The notes under the pieces were generated by a model. That model did no database searches. It saw only the letters and a list, made by a program, of their open reading frames with translations, and was not told where the DNA came from. Of a stretch of 64,000 bases of DNA, positions 7,173-37,896 are shown in pieces. The stretch is from Elusimicrobiota bacterium. Its GTDB lineage: Bacteria; Elusimicrobiota; Elusimicrobia; Elusimicrobiales; UBA9959. Position 1 is the stretch's first letter, and each line of letters starts with the position of its first letter. The stretch spans positions 5,591 to 69,590 of the forward strand of contig DMES01000002.1 of assembly GCA_003450815.1 (NCBI GenBank), written 5' to 3'. The position numbers and the translations under genes are program-made.

Positions 7173-7190
7173 AATCAGGAGTGTTTCATA

Positions 7191-11075: not shown

Positions 11076-11099
11076 TAGGCCGATTTAATATAGTGCAAC

Positions 11100-12053: not shown

Positions 12054-12068
12054 TTGCGGAGGCTCCTT

Positions 12069-14031: not shown

Positions 14032-14091
14032 ATATCTTTTAGCGGTTAAATTTCTGGACTACCGAATTGTTAAGTGTTGAGCGGAGGGGGT

Positions 14092-14451: not shown

Positions 14452-14456
14452 ATGTT

Positions 14457-14495
14457 GTCTTTACATCTAAATTGCTTTGCCTCTTTGCATCTATC
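14457..14495. repeat. Reverse-orientation 8-nt-unit repeat (same family)
   Basis: The sequence is gtctttacatctaaattgctttgcctctttgcatctatc. 14459-14485 is the reverse complement of 13944-13970 with 25/27 identity. Confidence 0.8.
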
Positions 14496-14501
14496 ACTAT
14501 C

Positions 14502-16850: not shown

Positions 16851-17540
16851 ATGGCTATTGTCAAGAAGTACAGATCCGAGGTCGTCGCCGTTGAAAATCC
16901 TGTCTCCGACATCAGGACCGTTACCCTGCGGCCTCTTGAGAAGGCTTACAAGTACAATCCCGGCCAGTTCCTTCACCTGGCGCTTGATGAATTTGACCCG
17001 GCCAGACCATGGCCCGAATCGCGCTGCTTTTCCATGCAGAGCTCTCCGGATCAGGAGACGATTAAAATAACCTTCGCGGAAAAGGGGAAATTCACCGCGC
17101 GCATGGCGCGCGAACTCGCTCCGGGAAAAGTTATTTATGTCAAACTGCCCTACGGGGATCTGTTTTCAATAGCGCATAACACGCAAAAAACCGTCTTTGT
17201 AGCGGGTGGGACCGGTATTACTCCTTTTCTTTCGCTGTTTACCTCTCCGGAATTCGCTGCATATCAAAATCCCAGTCTTTATTTCGGGCTGCGGAGTCTA
17301 TCGCATCACCTTTATGCGGCCGACCTGGAAAAAGCCCTGGGTGTCAATCCCTCTTTTTCCGTCAAGCTGCAGAATGAGGAAAAAGACGGACGGCTTGATA
17401 TTCAGAAGATCTTCGGCGAAAATGGCCCCTCCGCCGTTTATTTCATTTCGGGGCCTCCTGTCATGATTAAAAGTTTTAAATCATTCCTGGCCTCCAACGG
17501 CGTCCCGCCTGAAAACATCAGAACGGACGATTGGGAATAG
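16851..17540 (+). CDS. FNR-family FAD/NAD(P)H oxidoreductase; candidate E3 reductase partner of RfbH but without a [2Fe-2S] ferredoxin domain
   Basis: RCFSMQS (RxYS-type flavin motif) and VFVAGGTGITPFLS (NAD(P)H-binding motif). It is 229 aa and has no N- or C-terminal Cys-rich ferredoxin module. Confidence 0.6.
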   Translation: MAIVKKYRSEVVAVENPVSDIRTVTLRPLEKAYKYNPGQFLHLALDEFDPARPWPESRCFSMQSSPDQETIKITFAEKGKFTARMARELAPGKVIYVKLPYGDLFSIAHNTQKTVFVAGGTGITPFLSLFTSPEFAAYQNPSLYFGLRSLSHHLYAADLEKALGVNPSFSVKLQNEEKDGRLDIQKIFGENGPSAVYFISGPPVMIKSFKSFLASNGVPPENIRTDDWE

Positions 17541-19265: not shown

Positions 19266-19855
19266 AACCCGTCAGGACCATCGTATGGGATGTGGATGAC
19301 ACGCTTAATGATCTAATGCGCGTTTGGCTGGATGAATGGTTCCTGCCGCGCAATATTCAAGTTAAAGCGCGGTATATGGATATTAAAGCCAATCCTCCGC
19401 ATAAAATACTAGGCATAAATCTTGAGGACTATCTCAGTTCTTATGACAAATTCAGGCTTTCCGGCAGTTATGCCCAAATGCCTCCGGCCGGCGCGGCGCT
19501 TCGCTGGTTTAAGGCTGAAGGTCATAACTACAGGCATATAGCTCTTACCGCCGTACCGCTTTGCGCGGCGCATGAATCCGCAGGATGGGTTTTCAGGCAT
19601 TTCGGGCGCTGGATAAGAACATTTCATGTGGTGCCGTCTCCTAGGAAAAGCGCCCCTGCGCCTCTTTACGAAGCAGAGAAAGCTGATTTTATAAAGCGGC
19701 TGGACCGTTGCGACTTCTTTGTGGATGACAGCCGGCGCAATCTTGCCCCCGTCGCGCGGCTCGGAGTTAAATGTGTGCTGGTTCCAAAGCCCTGGAACGG
19801 GGCAAAAGGCACCCTTTCAGAAGCGCTTGGTAAAATCAGGGGAATGAGGCTATGA
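19262..19855 (+). CDS. HAD-superfamily phosphatase-like protein
   Basis: DxDxT motif (VWDVDDTLND) near the N-terminus and DD in FFVDDS near the C-terminus. ATGA overlap with the upstream gene. Confidence 0.5.
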   Translation: MKPVRTIVWDVDDTLNDLMRVWLDEWFLPRNIQVKARYMDIKANPPHKILGINLEDYLSSYDKFRLSGSYAQMPPAGAALRWFKAEGHNYRHIALTAVPLCAAHESAGWVFRHFGRWIRTFHVVPSPRKSAPAPLYEAEKADFIKRLDRCDFFVDDSRRNLAPVARLGVKCVLVPKPWNGAKGTLSEALGKIRGMRL

Positions 19856-21657
19856 TAAAACTTTCCGATTATGTGATGAATTTCCTTTCCGGCCTTAAAG
19901 TCGGCAATATATTCCTTCTGCCGGGTGGGGGAGCCATGCATCTTGTGGATTCCCTGGGCCGGAACCGCGCTTTGAGCTATACCGGCTGTCTTCATGAACA
20001 GGCGGCTGTAATAGCCGCTGACGCCTATGCGCAGTATAAAGGGACTCTCGGAGTCGCTCTTGTTACCACCGGGCCGGGCGGCACTAACGCCATTACCGGC
20101 GTGGCCGCCTCGTGGATAGATTCCACTCCGCTGCTTGTGCTTTCGGGGCAGGCTAAAAGATGCGATCTTATTGGCAGCAGCGGCCTCCGCCAGAGAGGCA
20201 TACAGGAAGCCGATATCATTGCTATAGTAAAATCAGTCACCAAATATGCAGTAACCGTAATGGACCCGTATTCCATACGGTACCACCTTGAGAAGGCCGT
20301 TTTCCTGGCCTGTAGCGGCCGCCGGGGGCCGGTCTGGCTGGATATTCCGCTGGATGTGCAGGGCGCAAAAATAGACGAAAAAAAACTTAAGGGTTTTAAA
20401 TCTCCGAAACCAGCGGCTAAAGAAAGAAACCAGGCGCGGGCGGCGGCTGTCAGGGCCATCGAACTCCTGAACAAAGCCGAAAGACCGGTGATACTTGCCG
20501 GCGCGGGGATAAGGATGGCTGGCGCTTTGGAAGATTTCCGCGCCCTGGCGGCCGGATTAAAACTGCCTGTGCTTACCACCTGGCGCGCCGCCGATTTTCT
20601 GGCGGAGGACTGTCCTTTTTATTTTGGAAGGCCGGGTTCTATCGCCGGGCGCGGCGCTAATTTTATACAGCAGAACTCCGACCTTATCATTACTGTGGGC
20701 GCAAGGCTTGACCTGCCGCAGGTCGGTCATAATTACGGGCTTTTCGCCCGTGGCGCTAAAAAAGTGGTGGTTGACATAGATCCGAGGGAGATAGCAAAGC
20801 TGAATATGCGTGTGGACGTCAAAGCCGTATGTGACGCGAAGCTTTTCATATCGGAATTCATAAAAAATGCCGGCGGTGTAAAGGAAAAGAACCGTTCTCC
20901 CTGGCTTTCCAGGTGCGCTTATTGGAAAGCTACGTATCCTGTGGGGATGAACGTGCCTTCCGGACAAAATACCCGGGTCAACACCTACTCCCTGATAGAC
21001 GTCTTATCACGGTTAATGAATAGCGGCGACATCCTGGTCCCGGGGAGTTCCGGTTCCTGCGCCGAGATAACTATGCAGGCTTTCAGGGTTACGTCCGGGC
21101 AGCGCATACTGAACACTCCTGGGCTTGGCTCAATGGGTTTCGGCCTTCCAGCAAGCATAGGGGCCTGTATAGCCGGCGGCGGAAAAAGAACGGTAAGCGT
21201 AATAGGTGACGGAGGCCTTCAGCACAATATACAGGAACTTGAGACCATACATCGCCTAAAGCTTCCAGTTAAAATTTTCGTTTTAAGCAATAACGGCTAC
21301 AGTTCCATAAGGCTGATGCAGGCCAGGCATTTTAACGGCAACTATGTCTGCTGCGGACCTTCAAGCGGACTTACGGTTCCTGATACCGTGAAGGTGGCGT
21401 CGGCGTATGGACTTAAAACATACAGAATACATAATTCCCGGCGGCTTGCCGCGGACGTTAAAAAAGTTCTTGAAATGCAGGGTCCTGTGATATGTGAAGT
21501 CATGGTTGACCCTGATTTGGAGACTGCGCCGCGACTGTCTTCGGCTGTAAGGCAGGACGGTTCAATAGTATCAAAACCGCTTGAGGACCTTTGGCCCTTT
21601 CTGGACCGGGAAGAATTTGCGTCGAATATGATCGTGAAGCCGCTGGAAGAGTCATAA
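19852..21657 (+). CDS. Thiamine-diphosphate-dependent enzyme, acetolactate-synthase large-subunit family (YerE-like candidate)
   Basis: N-terminal LPGGGAMHLVDSL..HEQAA..TTGPGGTN, central FAD-like domain, and C-terminal GSMGFGLP...GDGGLQHNIQELET...NNGY ThDP motif. Confidence 0.75.
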   Translation: MIKLSDYVMNFLSGLKVGNIFLLPGGGAMHLVDSLGRNRALSYTGCLHEQAAVIAADAYAQYKGTLGVALVTTGPGGTNAITGVAASWIDSTPLLVLSGQAKRCDLIGSSGLRQRGIQEADIIAIVKSVTKYAVTVMDPYSIRYHLEKAVFLACSGRRGPVWLDIPLDVQGAKIDEKKLKGFKSPKPAAKERNQARAAAVRAIELLNKAERPVILAGAGIRMAGALEDFRALAAGLKLPVLTTWRAADFLAEDCPFYFGRPGSIAGRGANFIQQNSDLIITVGARLDLPQVGHNYGLFARGAKKVVVDIDPREIAKLNMRVDVKAVCDAKLFISEFIKNAGGVKEKNRSPWLSRCAYWKATYPVGMNVPSGQNTRVNTYSLIDVLSRLMNSGDILVPGSSGSCAEITMQAFRVTSGQRILNTPGLGSMGFGLPASIGACIAGGGKRTVSVIGDGGLQHNIQELETIHRLKLPVKIFVLSNNGYSSIRLMQARHFNGNYVCCGPSSGLTVPDTVKVASAYGLKTYRIHNSRRLAADVKKVLEMQGPVICEVMVDPDLETAPRLSSAVRQDGSIVSKPLEDLWPFLDREEFASNMIVKPLEES

Positions 21658-21658: not shown

Positions 21659-22546
21659 ATGAAAATACTGTTAACCGGCGGGAAAGGCTTTATAGCGCGA
21701 AACCTGTGCGAGCAGCTGTGCACTGAACACCAGGTATGTGCCCCCGGAAGCGAAGAGCTGGACCTCCTTGACGCGCCGAAGGTCGGGAATTTTATTAAGG
21801 ATGGCGGGTTTGATGTTGTCGTTCACACGGCCACCTATGACGCCGCCCCCAAAGCTTCCACAAAAGATCCCTCAAAGGTACTTGAGAAAAACCTGCGGAT
21901 GTTTTTCTCAGTAGCGCGCTGCTCCCGGGATTTCGGTAAAATGATCTATTTCGGTTCGGGCGCGGAATTCAGCCGGGAGCATTGGAAACCCCGGATGGCT
22001 GAAGACTATTTTGACGCGAATATTCCCTGCGATCAATATGGGCTCTCAAAATACATCATGACCAAATACGCGCAGAGTTCAGCCAATATTTATAACCTGC
22101 GGCTTTTCGGGGTATTCGGTAAATATGACGACTGGCGTTACCGTTTTATTCCCAATGTCTGCGCCCGGGCGGCTATAAACCTTCCGGTAATCATTAATCA
22201 GTGCAGATTTTTTGATTTTCTCTACATTGACGATCTGGCACGGATAGTCAGTTGGTTCATTGCCAATAAGCCCAGCGGCAAGGTTTACAATGTCTGCACT
22301 GGCGCGCCGCAGGATTTTAAAACCCTTGCTGAAAAAGCGGTGAGAATATCGGGAAAAAAACTGAAAATAATCGTTCAAAACCCTGGATCCGGGGTGGAAT
22401 ACAGCGGGGATAATTCGGCGCTTCTGGAAGAGTTAAAGGGGTTTAAGTTCACATCCCCTGACACTGGGATAAAGATCGTATACGACTGGTGTGAAAGCCG
22501 CAGGGCCGATATTTCAAAAGCGGCGGCGGACGGTCAGCTTTTATGA
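21659..22546 (+). CDS. NAD-dependent epimerase/reductase (extended SDR)
   Basis: MKILLTGGKGFIARNL Rossmann motif and YGLSKYIMTKY (YxxxK). Confidence 0.65.
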   Translation: MKILLTGGKGFIARNLCEQLCTEHQVCAPGSEELDLLDAPKVGNFIKDGGFDVVVHTATYDAAPKASTKDPSKVLEKNLRMFFSVARCSRDFGKMIYFGSGAEFSREHWKPRMAEDYFDANIPCDQYGLSKYIMTKYAQSSANIYNLRLFGVFGKYDDWRYRFIPNVCARAAINLPVIINQCRFFDFLYIDDLARIVSWFIANKPSGKVYNVCTGAPQDFKTLAEKAVRISGKKLKIIVQNPGSGVEYSGDNSALLEELKGFKFTSPDTGIKIVYDWCESRRADISKAAADGQLL

Positions 22547-23040
22547 GCATCGCCACGGCCATAAAATCGCTGGAAAGACACATCTCCGACCCCCGGCTGG
22601 GCCTGCCTGAAGAAGTTTTTTTCTTTGTCAGCCGGCTGACCCCGATGGTAAACGTGGATTTGCTTGTAAAGGATGAGAAAGGACGGACGCTTTTGGCCTG
22701 GAGGAACGATAGGTTTTCCGGGATGGGCTGGCATTTACCCGGCGGAATTGTCCGTTTCAAAGAGAAACTGGAAAATAGGGTGATGAAGGTTGCAGAAGCC
22801 GAAATCGGCGCGTCGGTCAATTTTGATCCGGCGCCTGTCGCCATAAATCAGTTCATCTGCGGCCATGATACCAGAGGCCATTTTATATCGTTGCTGTATA
22901 AGTGTTCGATTTCAGGCGGCTACGCTCCGCCCAACGAAGGTTTGTCCCCTACGGATGAGGGATATTTACGCTGGCATGGAACCTGTCCCAAAAATCTGCT
23001 TAAAGTGCACGAGATATACAGAAAACATATATGCCAATAA
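22543..23040 (+). CDS. Nudix hydrolase, GDP-mannose mannosyl hydrolase-like
   Basis: Nudix box GGIVRFKEKLENRVMKVAEAEIG. The overall layout resembles WcaH/NudD (TPMVNVDLLV..., YLRWH). Confidence 0.6.
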   Translation: MSIATAIKSLERHISDPRLGLPEEVFFFVSRLTPMVNVDLLVKDEKGRTLLAWRNDRFSGMGWHLPGGIVRFKEKLENRVMKVAEAEIGASVNFDPAPVAINQFICGHDTRGHFISLLYKCSISGGYAPPNEGLSPTDEGYLRWHGTCPKNLLKVHEIYRKHICQ

Positions 23041-24167
23041 CTCATTGCAGGGTTTGCGGTCATGAGTTTTTCAGCAGTCCGCTGTTGCGCTATGCAAATA
23101 TGCCGAAAGCCGCCCAATTCCTGCCGTCCGCGGCGGCGCTTAAAAAGGATGCGGGAACTGGCCTAGAGGTCTGCCAGTGTTCGGGTTGCGGACTGGTCCA
23201 GCTGAGCAATGAGCCAGTGCCTTATTACAGGGAGGTCGTGCGCGCCTCAGCTTTTTCGCCGGAAATGAGAGATTTCCGCGTTAAGCAATTCAGCCGTTTT
23301 GTGCGGAAGTACGCCCTGAAAGGCGGAAAAGTGATTGAGATCGGCTGCGGCCGCGGCGAGTATCTTTCTTTAATGCGGCGGACCGGAGCGGATGTTTACG
23401 GATTGGAGTATTCAGGCAAAGCGGTTGACCATTGCCGCCGGGAAGGGTTGAAAGTTTCAAGGGGTTTTCTCGGGAACAGTCACGCGAAGCTCCGGGGTGG
23501 GCCGTTCCAGGCTTTTTTTATTTTGAGTTTTCTTGAGCATCTGCCGGAACCTAATTCCACGCTTAGGGAAGCATATAATAATCTGTCCGACGGCGGTTAC
23601 GGCCTTGTGGAAGTGCCTAATTTTGACATGATAATGCGGAAAAATCTTTTTTCCGAATTTATATCCGACCACCTTTTATATTTTACCAAAGATACTCTGG
23701 TCGCTGCGTTGGACCGCAACGGTTTTGAGGTCCTTGAGTGCAAGGAAATCTGGCGTGATTATATAATCTCGGCCGTTGTGCGGAAGAGGGGAAAACTGGA
23801 CCTGTCCCGGTTCCACCGGCGTCGGACTGCGCTGGCAGTGGAAATAAACGCGTATATACGCCGTTTTAAACCCGGCAAAGTGGCTGTGTGGGGAGCCGGC
23901 CACCAGGCGCTTACCGTAATGTCGCTGGCCTCTCTGGCCGGTAAAATACGCTATGTGGTGGATTCCGCGCCTTTTAAACAGGGAAAATACACGCCAGCCA
24001 CGCATATACCGATAGTTTCTCCCGCTTCGATTGTAACTGATCCGGTGGATGCCGTAATAGTTATGGCGGCCGGATATTCCGACGAAGTGGCCGGAATTAT
24101 ACGGCGGAAGTACGACGGGAAAATAAATATTTCCATTTTGAGAGAGCGCGGGCTGGAAACCGTTTAA
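23031..24167 (+). CDS. SAM-dependent NDP-sugar C-methyltransferase family protein
   Basis: N-terminal Zn-ribbon (CRVCGHEF...CQCSGCGLVQL), SAM motif VIEIGCGRGEY and a C-terminal Rossmann-like domain (VAVWGAGHQA) typical of C-methyltransferases. Confidence 0.65.
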   Translation: MPITHCRVCGHEFFSSPLLRYANMPKAAQFLPSAAALKKDAGTGLEVCQCSGCGLVQLSNEPVPYYREVVRASAFSPEMRDFRVKQFSRFVRKYALKGGKVIEIGCGRGEYLSLMRRTGADVYGLEYSGKAVDHCRREGLKVSRGFLGNSHAKLRGGPFQAFFILSFLEHLPEPNSTLREAYNNLSDGGYGLVEVPNFDMIMRKNLFSEFISDHLLYFTKDTLVAALDRNGFEVLECKEIWRDYIISAVVRKRGKLDLSRFHRRRTALAVEINAYIRRFKPGKVAVWGAGHQALTVMSLASLAGKIRYVVDSAPFKQGKYTPATHIPIVSPASIVTDPVDAVIVMAAGYSDEVAGIIRRKYDGKINISILRERGLETV

Positions 24168-24172
24168 ATCAA

Positions 24173-25867
24173 ATGAATATCCTCCTTGTTTTTCCGCTTA
24201 ACGAGCCTTATGACGAGATAATCACCGCGAATAAGACGGCCTGGAAATCAAAACTTAATCCCTATAAAAACATAAAAAAGCTGGACTGCGCGTATCCGAC
24301 CGGCCTGTTATCCATTGCCTCGTACGTTAAGAAGCACGTTCCCGAAGCTAACGTGAAAATTTTGGACCTGAACGCGGTTCTGATCCGGGTAGCAAAAAGG
24401 AAAAGCGAGGGTTCCGAGACTTTTGCCGGATATGGGTATGAAGATCTCCTGAAGGAATCGATGTCGCTGCTTGGTGGATTTATCCCTGATATTACCGGCA
24501 TCTCAACGCTTTTTTGCAGCAACTACCGGGATTTGAAGCCCCTGGCGGCGTTTTTAAAAAAAGCATATCCAAAAAACCTGGTTGTTTGCGGTGGGCATCT
24601 GGCTTCGGCTTGTTACGAACGGATTTATTACGACAAACATGAAATTGACGCTATAGGGTTTGGTGAAGGTGAAATACCGTTCCGCGAGCTGGCCTGCGCC
24701 GTTTTGCGCGGAAAAGCGGCGGAATATTTATCCTCAAGCCCCTATTGGATCACTAAGGCGAAAACAGGGGCCGGCGTTAAATTTGCGCCCCAAAAAACCG
24801 CGCTGGCCGATCTGGATGAGATCCCTCCGTTCGATTTCGGCATGCTGGTGTTCCCGGAGGCCTATTTTAACTCGACCAGGTATTTCTTTGTGATAGACTC
24901 TCGGGAGGATAAAAAGGAGATATTTATTTTTTCCTCAAGGGGCTGCCAGTATAAGTGTGTTTTCTGCGCGTCGCAGAATGTCCATGGCAACGCCGTCCGG
25001 TTCCACAGCGTTGACAGGATCCGGAGCGACATACGTTATTATCACGAGCGTTACGGCATAACCAGATTTGTGTTTTATGACGACCATTTCCTGTCGGACA
25101 AAGCCAGGGCGCTGGAGATCCTTGAATTTATCTCGCGTCAGGGATTTACCGCTGAAATTCCCACGCCGGCTTTTTTCTCGCTGGACGGGGAGATAGCCGC
25201 CGCCATGAAGCGGGCCGGCATCAGGGAAGTTAATCTTACTATAGAGAGCGGGAATGAAAACACTTTAAAAAAAATAATCCATAAGCCCGGAAGCCTCAAA
25301 AAGGCGGCGGAAGCCGTGGATATCCTTCACAACGAAGGCATCATTGTGGTTTCAAATATTCTGATAGGCCTGCCGGGAGAGACAAAAGAATCCATCGAAA
25401 GCGGCCTGGAATATCTGCTGACTACGAGTATAGACTGGTTCCAGTGTTTTGTTGTGGCGCCTTTGCCTGGAAGCGAACTGTATGAAATATGCGAGGAAAA
25501 AGGCTACTTCGTGCCTGATTACGATATTTCAACGATGGATTATAAAAAATGTCTGATAAGAACGGCGGATTTCTCACCGGAATATATTGAAAAGAAAGCT
25601 TATGAGATGAATTTGAAGCTGAATTTCACCAATAATTATAATATAAGAATCGGCAATTACCGTGTAGCTCTGATGTTTTTTGAGAGGGTGATAAATTCGG
25701 TAATTGACACGCACGCCTTCGCGTATTATTTTGCCGCGAAATGCTGCCAGGCGTTGCGGCTGGACGGTAAATATGAGATCTATAAGGCAAAATACGCTGA
25801 AATGACGGCAAAATACGTGTTCTGGCGGGAATATTCCGCTCAGTTTAATTTAAAGCCGCTGGATTAA
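24173..25867 (+). CDS. B12-binding-domain radical SAM protein (class B)
   Basis: N-terminal cobalamin-binding-like domain, then a CxxxCxxC motif (SSRGCQYKCVFCAS). Confidence 0.75.
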   Translation: MNILLVFPLNEPYDEIITANKTAWKSKLNPYKNIKKLDCAYPTGLLSIASYVKKHVPEANVKILDLNAVLIRVAKRKSEGSETFAGYGYEDLLKESMSLLGGFIPDITGISTLFCSNYRDLKPLAAFLKKAYPKNLVVCGGHLASACYERIYYDKHEIDAIGFGEGEIPFRELACAVLRGKAAEYLSSSPYWITKAKTGAGVKFAPQKTALADLDEIPPFDFGMLVFPEAYFNSTRYFFVIDSREDKKEIFIFSSRGCQYKCVFCASQNVHGNAVRFHSVDRIRSDIRYYHERYGITRFVFYDDHFLSDKARALEILEFISRQGFTAEIPTPAFFSLDGEIAAAMKRAGIREVNLTIESGNENTLKKIIHKPGSLKKAAEAVDILHNEGIIVVSNILIGLPGETKESIESGLEYLLTTSIDWFQCFVVAPLPGSELYEICEEKGYFVPDYDISTMDYKKCLIRTADFSPEYIEKKAYEMNLKLNFTNNYNIRIGNYRVALMFFERVINSVIDTHAFAYYFAAKCCQALRLDGKYEIYKAKYAEMTAKYVFWREYSAQFNLKPLD

Positions 25868-25924
25868 AATCTTTTTACCATGCTCCGCCCTTCTAGGCGG
25901 GGATGCCCCGGGACAAGTCTATTC

Positions 25925-26698
25925 ATGAAAAACAAATTCATTGGTTTTCGCAGTAAAGCGGCCGGCCGGATCAATATAAAGCTGGGCAAGGCCGGATTTA
26001 CCGTAATAAACCTGACAGAACCTCTGAGGGAGAATGTTGAGGTTTTCCCCGGGGACCCTAAGCCGCAGAAAAAAGTGTTTTGTTCGTTCGAGAAAGACAA
26101 TTGCCGGCATAACATATACCTGGTGGGTGATCATAACCACCATCCGCACGGGGACGCGCCCAATCATCAAAATCTCCGGTGTAAAAAAATGGGTTTTGAG
26201 TTCTGGGGCCTGGATTTTGTGTTTAACAAAGCCTGCCTGATAGATCTATCAGGTTCGGAAGGTTCCGTTAAGTCCTACGGAGTAACATATTTAAAAAAAA
26301 TAACAGACGCGCATCTCAGCCCTTATCTGGCCCGAATAGGGAAAAGCGGAGCTTTGATACTGAGGACCGGTTATGACAGGTGGCTGGAATCAAATAAAAA
26401 ACATCTCCCGGGCGGTATCCCGTATCTGGACAAAAGCGCGGTTGACCTGATTTCCAAATTCAAGAAACTTAAGGTTATAGGGATAGATAGCCTGACGATA
26501 GATGGAACGGGAAAAAATTACGCGCACAGAAAACTTAAAGATAAGTTTATAGTGGAAAGCCTTGTCAACCTGTACGGTATTCCCGCAAAAGCCAGGTCAG
26601 GGTTTTATCTGCAGACAAGCCCGATAGCTATAGTGGGAGCCACGGGCGGGCCTGTTCTGGCATATGCCTATATACCGAAGGCAGGGTATAGGGGCTAG
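25925..26698 (+). CDS. Cyclase-family (kynurenine-formamidase-like) protein
   Basis: VINLTEPL..VFPGDP and a variant metal motif GDHNHHPHGDAPNH (compare HxGTHxDxPxH). ATG 25925 is preferred. Confidence 0.5.
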   Translation: MKNKFIGFRSKAAGRINIKLGKAGFTVINLTEPLRENVEVFPGDPKPQKKVFCSFEKDNCRHNIYLVGDHNHHPHGDAPNHQNLRCKKMGFEFWGLDFVFNKACLIDLSGSEGSVKSYGVTYLKKITDAHLSPYLARIGKSGALILRTGYDRWLESNKKHLPGGIPYLDKSAVDLISKFKKLKVIGIDSLTIDGTGKNYAHRKLKDKFIVESLVNLYGIPAKARSGFYLQTSPIAIVGATGGPVLAYAYIPKAGYRG

Positions 26699-26727
26699 CG
26701 GATAGGGGTTAGAGCAGAGAAAATGCT

Positions 26728-27651
26728 ATGACAAAAGTTAATATCGGATTTATCGGGCTTGGGAAAATGGGCGGGCTTGTCGCGCGAAGGCTTGCCGGAG
26801 CCGGATACAAACTGTTCGTGCATGACCGTATCCACGCTAACATGCTGGCGATATCCCGGAAAGGCGCGAACGCCTGCCGCTCGCCTGAAGAACTGGCTTA
26901 TGCCCTGTCCGCGCCCCGCGTAATAATGCTGTGCATCCCGGCGGGTGCCGCCATTGATGAGCTTATACGGCAAGTGTCCCCTGTTTTGACTAAAGGGGAT
27001 ATCCTGGCGGATCTGGGTAACTCTTTCTACCACGACAGCGTTAAAAGGGCCGGCGCGTTAAGAAAGCGCGGGGTTCATTTTATAGATGTCGGCATGAGCG
27101 GTGGGGTGACTGGGGCGCGGAACGGCGCCTGTCTGATGATAGGCGGAGTAAAAAGACAGGCTGTCAAACTGGATGGTATTTTCAAAGCTATTTCTAAAAA
27201 CGGCTCTTATAAATATTTCAGCCGCCCCGGTGCAGGACACCTGATCAAAGGATTTCATAATTTGATCGAATACGGATATCTGCAGTCATTGGCCGAAGGT
27301 CTGGAAAGTCTTTACAGGATCTCAGTGAAGGGGAAAATGAAGCTGGACCTGGCGGAGGTTTGCGATATATGGTCGCGCGGGAGCATAATCGAATCCCGGC
27401 TGGTCTTCGACGCGAAAACCGCGCTTAGACTGAATCCGGGCCTGAAAGGGATATCCGGTTCCGTGAACGGGCAGACGCTCTCCGAGATGCGGAGACTTAT
27501 TCGCGTAGCGTCCGCTTCAGGGGTCAGGAACTATTCCGGAGCGGCCGCCGTAAGAGCCAGGCTGCGATCGCGCAGTAAGCCCACATATTCCGGAAAGCTG
27601 ATAAACGCCATAAGAAATGTTTTCGGAGGCCACAGCGAATGGAAGAAGTAG
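26728..27651 (+). CDS. 6-phosphogluconate dehydrogenase (decarboxylating)-like NAD(P) oxidoreductase, short YqeC/GntZ type
   Basis: IGFIGLGKMGGLVARRL, GNSFYHDS, GMSGGVTGARNGACLMIGG, GAGHLIKGFHNLIEYG and a C-terminal NVFGGHSEWKK. Confidence 0.7.
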   Translation: MTKVNIGFIGLGKMGGLVARRLAGAGYKLFVHDRIHANMLAISRKGANACRSPEELAYALSAPRVIMLCIPAGAAIDELIRQVSPVLTKGDILADLGNSFYHDSVKRAGALRKRGVHFIDVGMSGGVTGARNGACLMIGGVKRQAVKLDGIFKAISKNGSYKYFSRPGAGHLIKGFHNLIEYGYLQSLAEGLESLYRISVKGKMKLDLAEVCDIWSRGSIIESRLVFDAKTALRLNPGLKGISGSVNGQTLSEMRRLIRVASASGVRNYSGAAAVRARLRSRSKPTYSGKLINAIRNVFGGHSEWKK

Positions 27652-29072
27652 CGGCCGGACTTGATATAGGCACCTCCTCCATAAAACTGGTCCTGCGGGG
27701 CCGGAAAGGGGTAGTCTATTCGGCTATAAAGCGGCATTCAGGCCCGGCTGATAAAAGGGAGCTTCCTCCCGGTCTGCTGCTGTCGGATGTGTTTCGCATG
27801 CTGCGGTCCGCGGCCGTAGAGAATAAAAATTTTAAGATCAAAGCCATAGGCCTTAGCGCGCTTTATCCAAGTCTTATAGTTTTAGACGCACAAGGAAAAC
27901 CCCTTACCCGGATAATGACCTGGCTGGATGAAAAAGGTGGGGAAGCGGCCGGGAAATTCCGCAAGGGCGCTCTCGCCGCTTCCTTGCACAAAAGGACGGG
28001 CTGTCCGGCCCATGGATCCTATCCGCTCTGGAAACTTATCTGGCTCAGAAAGAACAAGCCGGAGATATTCCGGCCAGCGGCTAAATTTCTTTCACTGCCG
28101 GATTATCTTGTATACAGGCTGACGGGAAAATATGCGGTTTCCCGGGCTATCGCTTCCACCACCGGGCTTTTTAATATCAGAACGCTCGAATGGGATAAAA
28201 AAGCGTTGGCGTTGGCCGGAATATCCGCCGCGCAGCTCCCTGAATGTTTCAGCATATATCATCTCGAGCCCATACTTCAGGGGCCGCGTTTTGAAACCGG
28301 GCTGCCTCCGGACGCTGTTGTAGTCCTTGGGGCGGGTGACGGGCACTTGTGCAATATCGGCGCGGGTTGTGCCGATGGAAAGGTCTGCTCCACCGTAGGC
28401 GCAAGTTCCGCTGTCAGGGTTATCGGGCCTCTCAAAGGCTATAATCCTTCGGTGTGGCGGTATTACCTCTACGGCGATAAATATGTTTCCGGTATCGCGG
28501 CTAACGCCGGGTTAAGCACGCTGGAATGGTTCGTGAAGGATATCCTGCGGGAAAAGTCTGAGCGCCTGCCCCGCCTTATCTCTGGTCTTGACCCCGCTCT
28601 CACGACCGGAATTGTATTTCTGCCTTTTTTAGACGGAGAAAGAGGTCCCGGATATAATCAGGGAATGTCCGCGGCTTTCATGGGGCTCAGGTCCTCCGAC
28701 GGGAGCAGGGAAATGTTCAAGGCCGTGCTTGAGGGGCTATTCTTCAGCCTCTACCACTGCCTGGAGGTTTTATTCGGCAACACCCGCAAACCGGCGGAAA
28801 TAACGGCTACAGGCGGATACGCGCGATTCCCTGGATTGCTCCAGCTGCAGGCGGATATTTTCGGCATGCGTGTAAAGGCTATAGATTCGGACGAGGCTTC
28901 CGCGGACGGATCGGCCAAGGTGGCGTTAACGGCGCTTGGCACGATCTCGTCCCCTTTGGCGATCAAGCCGGGGATACGGAAAATATACTTCCCCGACAGC
29001 CGCAGGCAATTGGAGTATAAGGTGAAGTACGCCGCATACAGAAAATTTTACGAAATGCAGGCTGATAAATGA
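27639..29072 (+). CDS. FGGY-family carbohydrate kinase
   Basis: GLDIGTSSIKLVL, GAGDGHLCNIGAG and ATGGYARFPGLLQLQADIFG. Confidence 0.7.
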   Translation: MEEVAAGLDIGTSSIKLVLRGRKGVVYSAIKRHSGPADKRELPPGLLLSDVFRMLRSAAVENKNFKIKAIGLSALYPSLIVLDAQGKPLTRIMTWLDEKGGEAAGKFRKGALAASLHKRTGCPAHGSYPLWKLIWLRKNKPEIFRPAAKFLSLPDYLVYRLTGKYAVSRAIASTTGLFNIRTLEWDKKALALAGISAAQLPECFSIYHLEPILQGPRFETGLPPDAVVVLGAGDGHLCNIGAGCADGKVCSTVGASSAVRVIGPLKGYNPSVWRYYLYGDKYVSGIAANAGLSTLEWFVKDILREKSERLPRLISGLDPALTTGIVFLPFLDGERGPGYNQGMSAAFMGLRSSDGSREMFKAVLEGLFFSLYHCLEVLFGNTRKPAEITATGGYARFPGLLQLQADIFGMRVKAIDSDEASADGSAKVALTALGTISSPLAIKPGIRKIYFPDSRRQLEYKVKYAAYRKFYEMQADK

Positions 29073-30181
29073 CCCCCGATCAGAAACCCGCTGAAACCGG
29101 CGTTCCGCTGGTCAGTATTGTCGTGCCGGTGTATAACGCCGAAGCGACCCTTGAGCAGTGCGTTGAAAGTGTGCTTTCACAGACATACCGAAACACGGAA
29201 CTGATACTTGTGGACGACGGTTCCACGGATGCCGGCGGTGACATATCCGAAGGCTATGGCCGGCGCTACGATAGGATAAAATCTTTTCATTGCGGTAACG
29301 GGGGGCCGTCCGCCGCCAGGAATTACGGCATAAATAAAGCGAACGGTGAATTGTTGTTTTTTCTGGATGCCGACGACTATCTGCCCGCTCACGCTATAAG
29401 TTCCCTTGTCGAGAATTATTCCCGGTGCGGCGCGGACATGGTGGTGGGAGATTTTCAGCATGTATCAGCCGGCGGGCAGGCGGCCGGCGGCGGAGGGGCC
29501 TTTGCGGAGAGCCGGTTGATGCAAAAACCTGAAATTGTGGATTACGCTTTCGCCTATCTGCGTAAGCCTAACCGGGCTATTCTATTCGCCTATTCGTGGG
29601 GCCGCTTATTTAAAACAAGCATAATCCGCGGCTGCAATATCCTGTTTAATCCGGAACTGCATACCTTCGAGGATGTGGCGTTTAATTTTGACTATCTAAA
29701 ACACGCGCGGACGGTGTCGTTCGTGAAGCAGGTAGCGTATGAGCACCGGATCTGCGAAAATTATTCTTCGGCCACTATGACGGTGTCCGGCGATCCTAAA
29801 AAAATGTTCGGCTATAGGAGCGCGCTTAAAAACATACGCGGGTTCCTTGAAGAAGCCTGTGCGAACCCTGAAATAAGTGAGGCGGTAGGGCACGCGAATG
29901 TTTTCCTGACCATCATTCAGCTTGTCCGTATCTGCGGCCAGATAAACGCGTCCAACAAAAAAGAGCTCTATGGGCTGGTCAGGGAGGTTATCTCTGATCC
30001 CGGCTTGAGGAGAGATCTGCTGTTTTATCGCCCGTCAAACAGGGACAGCCGGCTTATCCCGCTGCTCATAAGACTAAGGCTGGCGCCGCTTGTCGTGGCG
30101 GTTTGCCGGCATAAGGCGGCTAAAAGATATGGAAGAGGGTTTGCCGCAAACCCGTGTAATTTTTTTCTGGGAGGCGTTTAA
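29069..30181 (+). CDS. Glycosyltransferase family 2
   Basis: VSIVVPVYNAEATLEQCVESVLSQTY, LVDDGSTD and LDADD. Confidence 0.8.
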   Translation: MTPDQKPAETGVPLVSIVVPVYNAEATLEQCVESVLSQTYRNTELILVDDGSTDAGGDISEGYGRRYDRIKSFHCGNGGPSAARNYGINKANGELLFFLDADDYLPAHAISSLVENYSRCGADMVVGDFQHVSAGGQAAGGGGAFAESRLMQKPEIVDYAFAYLRKPNRAILFAYSWGRLFKTSIIRGCNILFNPELHTFEDVAFNFDYLKHARTVSFVKQVAYEHRICENYSSATMTVSGDPKKMFGYRSALKNIRGFLEEACANPEISEAVGHANVFLTIIQLVRICGQINASNKKELYGLVREVISDPGLRRDLLFYRPSNRDSRLIPLLIRLRLAPLVVAVCRHKAAKRYGRGFAANPCNFFLGGV

Positions 30182-31422
30182 TGCCGCGTGCCGTGAAGTT
30201 TAACGCCGGAGAGGCAGTGGAAAAGCTGAAAGATGGATCGGTCCCTGTAATAATATTCGGAGCCGGGGTTGTGGGCGAAGCTTTATTTTATGCCTGTGCC
30301 GGCGCCGGTATTGCGGTGGAATGTTTTTGCGATAACAACGCGAACAAAACCCGCGCGCTTTTTTGCGGCGTTAGGGTAATTCATGTTTCTGAACTGAAAA
30401 AAAATTATAAAGATGCCGCTTTCCTGATTTCCGCCGCGGACATAAAAGATGTGGTGGACCAGCTTTGTTCGTTGGGATATTCCAAATGGCATGCGGGAGC
30501 GATATTGCTGCGCGATTTTAATCCGGCCGTGCACCGGTTCAGCGCTCCTTATGAATTTGTTGAGTACGCTGTGGGTACGGCCCTTTTGTGCCAGGACAGC
30601 TTTCTGCTCCCTGATAAGATCTTTCTGCGCAGCGTGGACATAATAGTTACGGAGAGGTGTTCCCTGAAATGCAGGGATTGTTCCAACCTCATGCAGTATT
30701 ATAAGAAACCGGAAAATATCGCTATTGAAGAGGTTTTTCGGGATATTAATGCTCTTTGTGCCGTTGTAGATGAAATTAATGAATTCAGGGTTATAGGCGG
30801 AGAGCCTTTTATGAATCGCGACTTCCATTTAACGGTCAAGTGTCTGATCGATGAACCGAAGGTTAAAAAAGTGGTAATCTATACCAACGGGACGGTCGTC
30901 CCCGCTGAGGAACAGCTGGAGTGTTTAAAGAGCGGCAAGGTTCTGGTTATTATTACTGATTACGGTAGGCTCTCAAAAAAGCTGGAACAGCTTAAAGCGG
31001 CGCTTTCAGATAAAAAAATAGCTTTTTACGTTCCGAAAGCGGGGGGGTGGAGCGATTGCGCCAGGATAGCCAGGCATAACAGGACCGCGTCCGGTCAAAA
31101 GGAAGTTCTTAAAAAATGCTGCGCCAAAAATACTTTCACGCTGTCCGGTGGGCGGCTTTTCAGATGCCCGTTTTCGGCAAATGCTTACAGGCTGGGAGCG
31201 GTTCCGGATAATGCCGGCGACTATGTGGAGCTTATCGGAGAGCAAGGTCCCGACAGTGTCAGGAAGAAGATAAAGAAGCTTCTTTTTGAAAGTGAATTAC
31301 TGGAGATCTGCGATTACTGTAACGGCAGGCCGTTCGGCGCTCCCGAGATCCAGCCGGCGGTACAGGTGAGCGCTCCATTGGACTACGAGAACATCCGGCC
31401 GTCCGGACAGGAGAAAATATAA
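30181..31422 (+). CDS. Radical SAM protein with N-terminal Rossmann-like domain and C-terminal Cys-rich region
   Basis: VIIFGAGVVGE, then VTERCSLKCRDCSNL (CxxxCxxC). C-terminal cysteines KKCCAKN, RCPFS and ICDYCNG. Confidence 0.7.
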   Translation: MPRAVKFNAGEAVEKLKDGSVPVIIFGAGVVGEALFYACAGAGIAVECFCDNNANKTRALFCGVRVIHVSELKKNYKDAAFLISAADIKDVVDQLCSLGYSKWHAGAILLRDFNPAVHRFSAPYEFVEYAVGTALLCQDSFLLPDKIFLRSVDIIVTERCSLKCRDCSNLMQYYKKPENIAIEEVFRDINALCAVVDEINEFRVIGGEPFMNRDFHLTVKCLIDEPKVKKVVIYTNGTVVPAEEQLECLKSGKVLVIITDYGRLSKKLEQLKAALSDKKIAFYVPKAGGWSDCARIARHNRTASGQKEVLKKCCAKNTFTLSGGRLFRCPFSANAYRLGAVPDNAGDYVELIGEQGPDSVRKKIKKLLFESELLEICDYCNGRPFGAPEIQPAVQVSAPLDYENIRPSGQEKI

Positions 31423-32504
31423 TGCCGGCTAATTATGAAAATCTGAAAGCGAACGAGCGGGAAAACCGCGATCTTCTCAAAAAGAATAAGCCGTATGTCT
31501 ATGAAAAAATGATGCGGTACGGCGAAAAGGTAAAAAACGGGGAAAGCATAGCCATCCTTCAGTTCCAGTACGATTACACCTGCAATTTCCAGTGCCGGCA
31601 TTGCTGCATCACCAGACTGCGCGGAAAAAAAGAAGACAGGGTTTTTACCATTAAGGACGTAGGGGAGCTGTCCCGCCAAGCCGATGAAATGGGGCTTGCG
31701 CAGATAGTCATTACCGGAGGTGAGCCCCTCGTATTCCCTGATTTTGACGATATCGTTCGAGCCATAGACCCCCAAAAATTTTACATAGTTTCAGATACAA
31801 ACGGCTGGTTCCTGGATGAGAAAAAGGCGAAACACCTTAAGAGCATCGGCGTTGATAAGATCCAGCTTAGTCTTGACAGCCTTTCGGCGCCGGAACACGA
31901 CGATTTCAGGCGCAAAAAAGGGTCGCACGAGCGGGCTTTAAGGGCTATTGACGCCTCTTTGAAAGCCGGTCTCAACATAATTCTGGCCACCGTTGTGACA
32001 AAGCAGCGGATCGGGTCCATGGAATTTGTCGATTTCCTTGAATTCGCAAAGAGTAAAGGCGTGGGAGTGTTCGTTACTTACGCCAAGCCGGTCGGCGAGT
32101 GGGAGGGCAAGCTGGATATGCTTGTCACCAAAGAGGATATGTCCCGCATGCGCGAACTTGAGAAAAAATACAATGTATTCACCCACCTCACTCCCGCTTA
32201 CGGGCTCAACCTGGGCTGCATTGCGGTAAAAAGGATGGTGTCCATCACGAAATACGGCGATATTATGCCCTGCCCGTACATACATGTTTCTCTGGGCAAC
32301 TTTTTTGAGGAGCCTTTGAAAGATATTATTCAAAGAGGGATGAACATCAAATGTTTCGGCAGGCATGTGGATACCTGTCTGATCGCGGAAGACCGGGAAT
32401 TTATTGAAGAGTATGAGGTTAAAAAAATATACGGCAAACGGCTTCCGGTGCGGTGTGAAGAGGTTTTTACGGAAAAAGATCTTATTGATCCGACTAAGCG
32501 GTAA
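31422..32504 (+). CDS. Radical SAM protein with SPASM/twitch-like C-terminal domain
   Basis: YDYTCNFQCRHCC (CxxxCxxC), ITGGEPL, and GCIAVKRMVSITKYGDIMPCPY plus CFGRHVDTC. Confidence 0.75.
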   Translation: MPANYENLKANERENRDLLKKNKPYVYEKMMRYGEKVKNGESIAILQFQYDYTCNFQCRHCCITRLRGKKEDRVFTIKDVGELSRQADEMGLAQIVITGGEPLVFPDFDDIVRAIDPQKFYIVSDTNGWFLDEKKAKHLKSIGVDKIQLSLDSLSAPEHDDFRRKKGSHERALRAIDASLKAGLNIILATVVTKQRIGSMEFVDFLEFAKSKGVGVFVTYAKPVGEWEGKLDMLVTKEDMSRMRELEKKYNVFTHLTPAYGLNLGCIAVKRMVSITKYGDIMPCPYIHVSLGNFFEEPLKDIIQRGMNIKCFGRHVDTCLIAEDREFIEEYEVKKIYGKRLPVRCEEVFTEKDLIDPTKR

Positions 32505-32522: not shown

Positions 32523-33452
32523 ATGAAACTGATAAGCATAGTCACCCATTGTTTTAATGAAGAGGGGAATGTCGGGCCGCTTTACACGCGGGTCAGGGAA
32601 ATATTCCAGAAACTTGGAACTTACAGGTATGAGCATATCTTCATCGACAACGCTTCAACGGATGGGACGCAGGCGGCGCTTAAAAAACTGGCCGCTTCCG
32701 ACTCGAATGTGAAGGTTATACTCAATACCAGAAACTTCGGAGTTGTGCGTTCCGCCTATCATGGTTTCCTGCAGGCTGGCGGCGATGCGGTGATCCCCAT
32801 TGCCGCTGATTTACAGGACCCGCCGGAACTGATAAACGATTTTTTGCGGGAATGGAAAAAAGGTTCCCTGGTGGTTTTGGGGATAAAAAACCGCAGCGAA
32901 GAGCCCGGTTTAATGTTTGCCGTGCGCAAGCTTTACTATAAGATCATAGGCAGTCTGGCTGAAATTAAGATCAACCAGAATAGCACCGGTTTCGGCCTTT
33001 ACGACCGGAAAACCCTTGTGGAACTAAAAAAATGGGAGGACCCCTATCCCTTTTTCAGGGGTCTTGTGTCCGAATTGGGTTTTGAGCCGGCGAAAGTGGA
33101 GTATTCTCAGCCGGTAAGAAAGAGGGGTGTTTCCACAAATAATTTTTACACGCTGTATGATATGGGTGTGCATGGGCTGATCAGCCATTCCAAGGTGCCG
33201 CTCCGCCTGGCGATCTTTATCGGATTTTTTCTCGCTATAGTAAATCTTATCGTGGCGCTGGGGTACTTTGTTTATAAATTGCTTTATTGGAACAGCTTTT
33301 CAATGGGTATCGCGCCGGCGGTCATAGGCCTGTTTTTCTTTTCTTCGGTCCAGCTCATTTTTCTGGGCATACTGGGGGAATATATAGCCGCCATATACAC
33401 GCAAACCCGAAAGCGGCCTTTAGTGATAGAAAAAGAGAGGATAAACTTCTGA
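32523..33452 (+). CDS. gtrB: GT2 polyprenyl-phosphate glycosyltransferase (GtrB/ArnC-like)
   Basis: ISIVTHCFNEEGNV, IDNASTDGT, ADLQDPPE, and two C-terminal TM helices. Confidence 0.75.
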   Translation: MKLISIVTHCFNEEGNVGPLYTRVREIFQKLGTYRYEHIFIDNASTDGTQAALKKLAASDSNVKVILNTRNFGVVRSAYHGFLQAGGDAVIPIAADLQDPPELINDFLREWKKGSLVVLGIKNRSEEPGLMFAVRKLYYKIIGSLAEIKINQNSTGFGLYDRKTLVELKKWEDPYPFFRGLVSELGFEPAKVEYSQPVRKRGVSTNNFYTLYDMGVHGLISHSKVPLRLAIFIGFFLAIVNLIVALGYFVYKLLYWNSFSMGIAPAVIGLFFFSSVQLIFLGILGEYIAAIYTQTRKRPLVIEKERINF

Positions 33453-33874
33453 ACAGGATTTTAGACTGTTCACGCAAGGTAAGGTTCCTTATTGTGGGCG
33501 TCTGGAACACGTTTTTCGGCTATGGCGTATTCTTTGTTATGGATACAGTTTTAGCCGCTTTGTTCCCTTCCCGACGGCTGGCCTATATGTCCGCCATTGT
33601 GGCGTCCAATATTATTGCCGTGTTAAACGCTTATATACTGCACCGGCGAATAACTTTCAGGTCCGCTTCCAAAGGGCGGCTGAAGTTGATGGAGTTTTTT
33701 AGATTCTGCGCCACTTACGCTTTTACAATGGGTTTGAGTATAGGTTTGATGCCGGTATTTGTGGAGCTGTTGCGCTTTTCTCCGAAGTCCGCTGGCTTGC
33801 TGGTTACCCTGCTGTGCGCTTTACTCAGCTATTTCAGCCATGCCAGATTTTCCTTCAAAGAGCCCATATCCTGA
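33449..33874 (+). CDS. gtrA: GtrA-family membrane protein (start codon uncertain)
   Basis: RFLIVGVWNTFFGYGVFF... with four hydrophobic segments. There is no ATG/GTG before the conserved N-terminus; the nearest in-frame candidate is CTG 33449, overlapping the gtrB stop. Confidence 0.55.
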   Translation: MNRILDCSRKVRFLIVGVWNTFFGYGVFFVMDTVLAALFPSRRLAYMSAIVASNIIAVLNAYILHRRITFRSASKGRLKLMEFFRFCATYAFTMGLSIGLMPVFVELLRFSPKSAGLLVTLLCALLSYFSHARFSFKEPIS

Positions 33875-37884: not shown

Positions 37885-37896
37885 ATAGAATTGAAT

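Follow-up and report, generated by a model that had tools for sequence, protein, structure and literature searches.

Background

Sugars with long branches are known from a few pathogens, and the pathways that make them have been worked out in part; more than 200 clusters of the YerE type were reportedly found in an in-silico survey by Krug et al. in 2024. In the pathways described for yersiniose, erwiniose, caryophyllose and gastriose (YerE, ErwE, MMAR_2332, and MyGE), enzymes dependent on thiamine diphosphate (ThDP) couple aldolase-made C4-C8 alpha-keto acids to cytidine diphosphate (CDP)-4-keto-3,6-dideoxyglucose, followed by a reductase (PMC9306805). Here we describe a window of 64,000 nucleotides, part of a 93-kb contig in an Elusimicrobia metagenome-assembled genome (MAG) from a groundwater metagenome, and an operon within it in which the genes for this CDP-keto-sugar and for a YerE-like enzyme stand together with genes for three radical S-adenosylmethionine (SAM) enzymes. 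All positions are those of the window unless a locus is named, and all operon genes lie on the + strand.

Parts of the operon recall other described systems. The twitch radical SAM dehydrogenases BtrN and SpeY, like their relative HygY, an epimerase, have secondary alcohols on sugar-like rings as their targets. The phosphate routes to 3-deoxy-D-manno-octulosonic acid (KDO) and 2-keto-3-deoxynononic acid (KDN) proceed by an isomerase, then a synthase dependent on phosphoenolpyruvate (PEP), then a HAD phosphatase. The structure 8rph is that of JanthE, the closest solved relative of the YerE-like enzyme of the window, and the physiological substrate of JanthE has been stated to be unknown (PMC12188165). 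In Brachyspira hyodysenteriae, a block of radical SAM, glycosyltransferase, short-chain dehydrogenase/reductase (SDR) and rfbC genes on the plasmid pBHWA1 tracks with pathogenic potential (PMC4267127). The open-access literature yielded nothing relevant on radical SAM enzymes in connection with yersiniose, YerE, CDP, O-antigen or twitch, nor on PF22674 or 3G8R.

Methods

Related loci were collected in a scan anchored on the 413-aa radical SAM protein of the operon (rSAM413), with one genome per species, which gave 177 relatives; 80 loci were kept for counts. The locus counts given below come from tblastn searches of the window proteins against these 80 loci, and all open reading frames (ORFs) of the loci were also clustered. 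Protein families were assigned with Pfam and NCBIfam profiles, and bit scores are quoted with the cutoff of the profile where one applies.

One operon for a putative acyl-branched CDP-sugar

Successive + strand genes between 17739 and 33452 are separated by gaps that are all ≤ 29 nt. The ATGA overlaps that a sequence-only reading of the window had listed at 19262, 19852, 22543, and 29069 were all seen in the sequence, as were its TAATG junctions at 30181 and 31422. That reading had singled out 22543-32504 as a sugar-modification module: every gene it named there is present, the domain types were verified by the profile searches, and CxxxCxxC occurs in all three radical SAM proteins of the window, but the limits of the module do not hold, the block being not self-contained but the downstream half of one operon. 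An extent of about 12054-33874 for this operon, with 22543-32504 as its tailoring, precursor-supply and transfer half, has in our judgement an even chance of being right. A promoter and terminator scan returned counts at chance or modestly above it and every site was intragenic, so it sets no operon boundaries.

The reading that we favour, and for which we hold the chances to be evenly balanced, is that the operon would make a CDP-activated 3,6-dideoxyhexose with a long, sugar-derived acyl branch at C4, destined for a cell-surface glycan. Whether the product would belong to the yersiniose/caryophyllose/gastriose class is likewise, in our view, about equally probable either way. The earlier statement that no characterised pathway has this combination of genes leaves the upstream half of the operon out of account, where RfbF, RfbG and RfbH, the YerE-like ThDP enzyme and the SDR fit the acyl-branched-sugar scheme (PMC9306805). 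For the block itself, no assigned function was found in the open-access literature.

With the YerE, ErwE, MMAR_2332 and MyGE pathways the operon shares the supply genes for CDP-4-keto-3,6-dideoxyglucose, a ThDP enzyme of the YerE clade with an adjoining SDR, and a gene for a C-C-bond-forming keto-acid synthase directly next to the ThDP gene (PMC9306805). It differs from them in three respects. Where those clusters have a pyruvate aldolase of the HpcH/BphI type, a NeuB-type PEP synthase fused to a cupin is found, frequently accompanied by a HAD phosphatase; the genes attached to the cluster encode a Nudix protein, a dedicated family 2 glycosyltransferase (GT2) and between two and four radical SAM enzymes; and the hosts are mostly uncultured anaerobes, together with an archaeon. 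The cassette suggests a second route to the donor, with a NeuB-type synthase replacing the aldolase, and connects between two and four radical SAM enzymes, none of them characterised, with the tailoring of a nucleotide sugar. What appears to be new is a variant of the acyl-branched nucleotide-sugar pathway with a conserved and widespread radical SAM component. The operon is also a concrete candidate for the physiological role of JanthE-type ThDP enzymes. It represents a type of operon that is widespread in bacteria and archaea, has no characterised member, and most likely builds an unusual, long-branched surface sugar with the help of several radical enzymes.

Recurrence in other genomes

The related loci come from Omnitrophota, Patescibacteria, Desulfobacterota, Nitrospirota, Lentisphaerota, Pseudomonadota, Pelagibacteraceae, Lachnospiraceae, Streptomyces, Ca. 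Methanoperedens and Nanoarchaeia. Homologs of the ThDP enzyme and of the NeuB-type protein were each found in 36/80 of them, the Nudix protein in 33/80, E1 in 32/80, the 360-aa radical SAM protein (rSAM360) in 31/80 with a median identity of 64%, and the class B radical SAM protein in 27/80. Less frequent were the CDP-glucose dehydratase (23-25/80), RfbF (23/80), the PgfS-like GT2 (18/80), the C-methyltransferase (17/80), the HAD protein (12/80) and the SDR (SDR295, 11-12/80). The order RfbF-RfbG-E1-NeuBcupin-HAD-ThDP-GT2-rSAM413-rSAM360-Nudix is fixed in Smithella, Desulfatibacillum, Desulfatitalea, Desulfosoma, Nitrospirae, and Victivallales MAGs. Two MAG loci represent species that can be cultivated, Victivallis vadensis (L046) and Sulfuricella denitrificans (L036). 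Clustering of all ORFs brought out more conserved families that are absent from the window, among them a third radical SAM/SPASM protein of about 339 aa (c6) in 33 loci and another SDR family in 14.

The block itself is preserved almost gene for gene, at 50-75% identity, in a Ca. Methanoperedens MAG (L004) and in a metagenome contig (L086). The archaeal locus (JAHFDG010000001.1, 3791-18710) carries the ThDP enzyme, cyclase, 6-phosphogluconate dehydrogenase (6PGDH), FGGY kinase, GT2, rSAM413, rSAM360, Nudix protein and C-methyltransferase, and then NeuBcupin and E1, at 49-73% identity to the window proteins except for the C-methyltransferase with 32%; such a near-identical block in an archaeon suggests cross-domain transfer within groundwater communities. 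At least three radical SAM families stand together in 33/80 loci, and rSAM413, rSAM360 and the class B protein do so in 16/80. The genes named in the sequence-only reading thus do occur together outside this contig, and since the same set recurs across dozens of unrelated genomes, their grouping is not due to chance. The block is nevertheless composite and contains three or more sub-modules that move independently of one another. One is GT2-rSAM413, to which rSAM360 and Nudix may be added; the others are cyclase-6PGDH-FGGY and the tailoring genes for the C-methyltransferase and the class B radical SAM protein.

Supply of the CDP-keto-sugar

The upstream half opens with RfbF (12054-12851; TIGR02623, 439 bits, cutoff 300), a glucose-1-phosphate cytidylyltransferase leading to CDP-glucose, and RfbG (12803-13954; TIGR02622, 493 bits, cutoff 278), a CDP-glucose 4,6-dehydratase. 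They are joined by RfbH, or E1, a CDP-6-deoxy-L-threo-D-glycero-4-hexulose 3-dehydrase (15388-16758; NF011936, 676 bits, cutoff 423; PDB 3bcx, 515 bits), which keeps the YPAHH His and the Cys-rich stretch RDCYCAGGENNTC and has, relative to the Yersinia enzyme, an insertion of about 28 aa at residues 197-224. Homology shows these three to be the enzymes expected to make CDP-4-keto-3,6-dideoxy-D-glucose.

The gene that follows (16851-17540, 229 aa; PF00175, PF08022) encodes an FNR-type flavin reductase, which may stand in for E3. No ferredoxin-type Fe-S domain was matched in it by the Pfam and NCBIfam profiles, and homologs occur in 1/80 loci. Between RfbG and E1, a non-coding gap of 517 nt (13955-14471) precedes an MBL-fold hydrolase gene (14472-15245) with an uncertain TTG start that recurs in 4/80 loci.

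Proposed donor synthesis and branching

The ThDP enzyme (19852-21657, 601 aa) scores 377 bits against JanthE (8rph) and 261 bits against PpYerE (5ahk), compared with ≤ 215 bits for any true acetolactate synthase, and it would decarboxylate a keto acid and join the acyl chain to the CDP-keto-sugar at C4. The proposed maker of this donor, a 3-deoxy-2-keto acid, is a fusion protein, a PEP-aldose synthase of the NeuB type with a metal-binding cupin attached (17739-19265; PF03102, PF07883; PDB 3g8r from Chromobacterium violaceum, 407 bits), which takes the position of the HpcH/BphI-type pyruvate aldolase, of which the window holds none. Its cupin domain may isomerise a pentulose 5-phosphate to an aldose phosphate, with which the NeuB domain would then condense PEP. 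A gene between the two (19262-19855), translationally coupled to both neighbours, encodes a candidate HAD-like phosphatase; its DVDDTL motif was read from the sequence, and no family was matched in the profile searches. This protein would dephosphorylate the product to a KDO-like 3-deoxy-2-keto acid, and its gene stands between the NeuB and ThDP genes in 12 loci. On the other side, the SDR (21659-22546; PF01370, RmlD_sub_bind) occupies the place of YerF in the known clusters, adjoins the ThDP gene in 11-12 loci, and could reduce the side-chain carbonyl. Starting from a pentulose phosphate, the proposed sequence of cupin, NeuB and HAD follows the logic of the phosphate routes to KDO and KDN. 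It departs from them in its enzyme families, a cupin taking the place of SIS, NeuB that of KdsA, and the HAD protein belonging to no assigned class, in lacking activation by cytidine monophosphate (CMP), and in a keto-acid product that is proposed to feed the ThDP enzyme.

A hydrolase followed by NeuB is also the logic of legionaminic and pseudaminic acid synthesis, and the same genes could be read as a new pathway of the nonulosonic-acid type, in which the ThDP enzyme would use pyruvate, the Nudix protein would free the branched 6-deoxy sugar, and NeuB-cupin would join it with PEP to give a higher ulosonic acid as the end product. The Nudix protein, found in 33/80 loci, does resemble GDP-mannose mannosyl hydrolase (GDPMH); enzymes of this type free the sugar by cleaving the sugar-O bond. 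However, a CMP-sugar synthetase gene (CTP_transf_3) is absent from the window and present in only 5/80 loci; because the window and 75/80 loci lack a CMP-transferase, we conclude that what NeuB makes does not become a CMP-sugar. The NeuB gene moreover lies upstream of the ThDP gene and not downstream of it, and the pathway would leave the HAD phosphatase and the kinase/6PGDH pair without a role. A NeuB-type gene accompanies the YerE-like gene in 30/34 loci and stands immediately upstream of it in 20; this position, together with the absence of the CMP-transferase, favours a role of the NeuB product as donor over a nonulosonic acid, a pathway to which we consider quite improbable.

The cyclase-6PGDH-FGGY trio

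For the precursor of the donor, the favoured scheme turns to three genes in the middle of the block: a cyclase/formamidase-fold metal hydrolase of 257 aa (25925-26698, the start probably at 25925 and not 25880; PF04199, with a KynB 4co9 profile match of 43 bits), a short-form decarboxylating 6PGDH (26728-27651; NF007161, 271 bits, equal to the cutoff; PDB 4e21, 177 bits) and an FGGY kinase (27639-29072). The variant metal motif noticed earlier in the cyclase is real: the His/His/Asp/His ligands of KynB are kept with a one-residue insertion, GDHNFHPHGDAPNH. The 6PGDH retains the catalytic GAGHxxKxxHNxIEYG (Lys/His/Asn/Glu), and its stretch GAGHLIKGFHNLIEYG aligns with 4e21. The kinase is closest to gluconokinase (211 bits for the gluconate kinase 3gbt vs. 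123 for xylulokinase) and stays under all curated cutoffs (TIGR01314, 232.7 bits, cutoff 648.6). Together, the hydrolase, the kinase and the short 6PGDH could produce a pentulose 5-phosphate from an aldonate or from the corresponding lactone. The suggestion that kinase and dehydrogenase supply a pentulose phosphate agrees with the structural relatives, the conserved catalytic residues, and the recurrence beside keto-acid-forming enzymes, and such a supply is, judging by homology and context, most likely the function of the trio.

Elsewhere the trio was found in window-like synteny (L086, L004), beside a NeuB+SAF protein and a fusion of GT2 with a radical SAM domain (L085), and beside an HpcH/HpaI aldolase and CMP-transferases (L087). 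The cyclase is part of the cassette in L004, L009, L012, L086, L088-L090 and L092. Cyclases with at least 60% identity are confined to cassettes of this kind, some of which have neither 6PGDH nor FGGY kinase; in L088-L090 and L092 the arrangement is C-methyltransferase, cyclase, GT2. Cyclase homologs with ≤ 55% identity lie in contexts that are mostly uninformative.

The trio might instead belong to ordinary central metabolism, as a gluconate shunt to ribulose 5-phosphate that entered the operon by insertion and plays no special part in the sugar pathway. The enzymes look like genuine relatives of gluconokinase and 6PGDH, an archaeal contig (L084) has the cyclase by itself, and a Woesearchaeota-type contig (L097; Ga0233437_1000287, 9977-13075) has the trio as a stand-alone operon in a housekeeping context near the gene for ribosomal protein L15e, with no glycan genes found within 10 kb. 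Against this, translational coupling joins the trio of the window to the genes on either side, glycan genes adjoin it in four independent contexts, in two of which a keto-acid-forming enzyme is its direct neighbour (NeuB in L085, HpcH in L087), and the close cyclases are restricted to the cassettes, which makes the ordinary shunt, to our mind, an unlikely explanation. In itself, the Woesearchaeota-type trio may give DPANN archaea a way to ribulose 5-phosphate that has gone unrecognised.

Nudix protein and C-methylation genes

The Nudix protein at the start of the block (22543-23040; PF00293) is a candidate CDP-sugar hydrolase of the GDPMH type, which might free an aldose for NeuB or clear dead-end intermediates. 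Its PDB matches below E = 1e-3 are GDPMH chains only, the Nudix box is altered in the same manner, a hydrophobic residue and an Ala replacing two Glu (KVAEAEIG here, RLTMAELG in GDPMH 1rya and 2gt4), and the curated profile for Gmm/NudD was not reached (NF011963, 41.6 bits, cutoff 146).

The next gene (23031-24167; PF13489, Methyltransf_23; PF08484, Methyltransf_14) encodes a nucleoside diphosphate (NDP)-sugar C-methyltransferase of the TylC3/TcaB9/KijD1 type with a Cys-rich Zn motif at its N-terminus and PDB matches to 4rv9, 5t64, and 3ndi at 74-80 bits; it may methylate the CDP-sugar next to a carbonyl. It is followed by the class B (cobalamin) radical SAM protein (24173-25867, 564 aa; PF02310, 38.4 bits, cutoff 32.1; PF04055, 82.8 bits), with an N-terminal B12-binding domain and the motif CQYKCVFC. 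From its domains, this is a probable methyltransferase for an unactivated carbon, here presumably one of the CDP-sugar. No curated equivalog was reached among PhpK, HpnJ, GenK-like, AprD4, and others (best NF038361, 143.7 bits, cutoff 575), and orthologs in L013 and L045 are 68-72% identical.

The GT2 and its radical SAM partners

A GT2 (GT2_370, 29069-30181; PF00535) is the obligate partner of rSAM413 (30181-31422). The GT2 has a homolog in 65/80 loci, nearly always directly adjoining the rSAM413 gene. More than 1,173 relatives of rSAM413 were counted at roughly 60% identity. The rSAM413 gene always has a glycosyltransferase gene as neighbour, which in Streptomyces is a GT1; in Streptomyces echinoruber the two genes overlap. 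The Streptomyces homologs were found in no known antibiotic cluster, only with the adjoining GT1 and unrelated genes. In L085 (JGI 3300086614, 5451-7790), a protein of 779 aa has a GT2 domain fused to a radical SAM domain and belongs to a cluster with NeuB+SAF, a CMP-transferase and the trio; this fusion suggests that glycosyltransferase and radical enzyme are functionally coupled.

In rSAM413 the radical SAM motif is CSLKCRDC, and C293, C313, C314, C329, C377, and C380 are invariant. The N-terminal Rossmann-like domain that had been read from the sequence is backed by a faint match to PF22674 and by the AlphaFold2 (AF2) model (mean pLDDT 79), for which Foldseek gave SpeY first (7wzv, E = 6e-9, TMt 0.62), BtrN next (4m7t), and more weakly FkbM (2py6) and VioB (7txp), both with a comparable Rossmann-like domain. 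Like BtrN, SpeY and HygY, the protein is a twitch radical SAM that combines CxxxCxxC with a C-terminal auxiliary-cluster Cys domain. Unlike BtrN and SpeY, to which it is only 16-17% identical, it has an extra N-terminal domain of about 125 aa, and it is paired with a glycosyltransferase in polysaccharide clusters instead of lying in aminoglycoside clusters. Our best guess is a SpeY/BtrN-like oxidation or epimerisation, and the N-terminal domain, which resembles domains that bind nucleotide sugars, probably binds the substrate, possibly a nucleotide sugar.

The hidden Markov model of this N-domain (window 30181-30555) has further matches among the proteins of the loci, namely FkbM methyltransferases and a pyruvyl transferase; the domain is fused N-terminally to FkbM and C-terminally to the pyruvyl transferase (L044, 2969-4390; L053, 5055-6497), and its presence at either terminus of other enzymes marks it as a portable module. 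Sequence similarity between the N-domain and the C-domain of the C-methyltransferase was not significant.

The third radical SAM protein, rSAM360 (31422-32504; PF04055, PF13186), bears the motif CNFQCRHC and three further invariant Cys, and the SPASM match in it upholds the SPASM/twitch-like end described before, a partial SPASM or twitch. Fold matches of its AF2 model, which is of low confidence, to MoaA, viperin, BlsE, and SkfB do not discriminate a single function. More than 2,454 homologs were counted, and the best 120 sequence clusters are 75-82% identical; such conservation (P0242-P0360, from sources that include Omnitrophota and Dissulfurispiraceae) is unusual for an enzyme of glycan clusters. 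In the proposed pathway rSAM413 and rSAM360 would abstract a hydrogen atom from a secondary alcohol and bring about oxidation, epimerisation or dehydration. Both families (> 1,000 and > 2,400 homologs) span many bacterial phyla as well as archaea and have no characterised member, which makes them a broad and untried source of anaerobic sugar chemistry.

SPASM/twitch domains, together with numerous weak NCBIfam matches to maturases of ribosomally synthesised peptides with post-translational modifications (RiPPs) might suggest that the radical SAM genes serve a precursor peptide that had been missed. The neighbours across the 80 loci are sugar-nucleotide and glycosyltransferase genes instead, the best fold matches are the sugar/cyclitol dehydrogenases SpeY and BtrN, and intergenic gaps of ≤ 29 nt leave no room for a precursor gene. 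Given the absence of precursor space and the glycan-gene neighbours, the RiPP reading was excluded, and its probability is in our opinion negligible.

Downstream of rSAM360 lie genes for a polyprenyl-phosphate glycosyltransferase, a GT2 of the PgfS/ArnC type (32523-33452; NF047588, 184 bits; NF007986, 97 bits), and for a GtrA-family membrane protein (33494-33874, 126 aa on the source contig; PF04138) whose start is probably at 33494 and not 33287. The GT2 next to rSAM413 may transfer the finished donor, and the PgfS/ArnC-like GT2 with GtrA could provide a polyprenyl-phosphate route.

Does the radical SAM module act on the branched sugar?

This is the main uncertainty of the favoured reading. 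GT2-rSAM413 pairs without E1, NeuB, and ThDP genes occur in Betaproteobacteria, Pelagibacteraceae and Lachnospiraceae, and in Sulfuricella, Dechloromonas, Pseudothauera (L053) and Pelagibacteraceae such pairs are accompanied by the Nudix protein and other radical SAM genes; the radical SAM module thus exists without the branching genes, and the radical enzymes need not act on an acyl-branched sugar. Two unrelated modules could accordingly share the operon. One of them, made up of GT2, rSAM413, rSAM360 and the Nudix protein plus the C-methyltransferase and the class B enzyme, would modify and transfer another sugar, which could be an NDP-hexose of a common kind or a glycan residue already in place; the other (E1, NeuB and ThDP) would make a separate branched sugar. 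The GT1 partner in Streptomyces fits this picture, and so does L053, from the isolate genome of Pseudothauera nasutitermitis CC-YHH838, where four radical SAM genes lie with FkbM and pyruvyl transferases and GT2s, and where the CDP-dideoxy pathway was not found within 10 kb.

The B. hyodysenteriae plasmid is a further case. pBHWA1 (NC_012226.1; L130/L131) carries rfbF, HAD, SDR, and glycosyltransferase genes interspersed with seven radical SAM/SPASM genes, and its rfbF product is 55% identical to RfbF of the window. Five of the radical SAM paralogs belong to the c6 family of the typical cassette (32-38% identity), and an rSAM413-like protein is 23% identical over the radical SAM part alone (query residues 151-382). 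The plasmid differs from the operon in having no E1, NeuB, or YerE homolog, and the c6 family in turn is missing from the window. This related block, rich in radical SAM genes and biochemically just as uncharacterised, links the topic to virulence.

Against two modules speaks the order NeuB-(HAD)-ThDP-GT2-rSAM413-rSAM360-Nudix, which is fixed and tight in the close relatives (47-62% identity in rSAM413) across several phyla. The genes of the window are translationally coupled, and the family of the C-methyltransferase needs a 4-keto NDP-sugar, which the upstream genes provide. We regard two unrelated modules as a rather unlikely, yet still appreciable, alternative.

Other observations also weigh against a single acyl-branched-sugar pathway. 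The HAD gene is present in just 12/36 loci that have a NeuB-type gene. The NeuB domain (128 bits, cutoff 400) and the FGGY kinase are well under their curated equivalog cutoffs, the isomerase role of the cupin is supported by weak matches, and the AF2 model of rSAM360 has a mean pLDDT of 60. The trio is rare among the genome loci (cyclase 3/80, 6PGDH 2/80, FGGY 1/80) and also stands alone in the Woesearchaeota-type contig. All functional statements that go past family membership draw on gene content and homology.

A bolder version of the favoured reading is that the radical SAM set (rSAM413, rSAM360 and a class B/SPASM partner) performs unprecedented chemistry on a nucleotide-linked higher-carbon sugar, which may include radical C-C cyclisation or skeletal rearrangement of the side chain, leading to carbocyclic or bicyclic monosaccharides. 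We think this improbable; were it true, the set would constitute a new class of enzymes, and its products a new surface-sugar family that is common among uncultured bacteria and certain archaea.

Genomic setting

From about 6.5 to 61 kb the window runs on the + strand almost throughout and is occupied by genes for glycan synthesis, among them genes for dTDP-rhamnose, GDP-mannose and GDP-fucose, FnlA/B/C-like proteins, many glycosyltransferases and an ABC exporter. The one hit of Rfam and tRNA scans of the window was a tRNA-Val (GAC) gene at 4480-4554, directly upstream of thrS and on the border of the glycan region; the block itself gave no hit. Inside the glycan cluster lie an AAA_14/DUF4143 ATPase gene (37891-39075) and an AbiEii-type toxin gene with an overlapping ORF of 212 aa (52844-54227). 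Genes matching GT17 and GT11, families best known from eukaryotic N-acetylglucosamine transferases and alpha-1,2-fucosyltransferases, adjoin each other at 43518-45364, with DUF5672 and DUF3431 proteins encoded just upstream.

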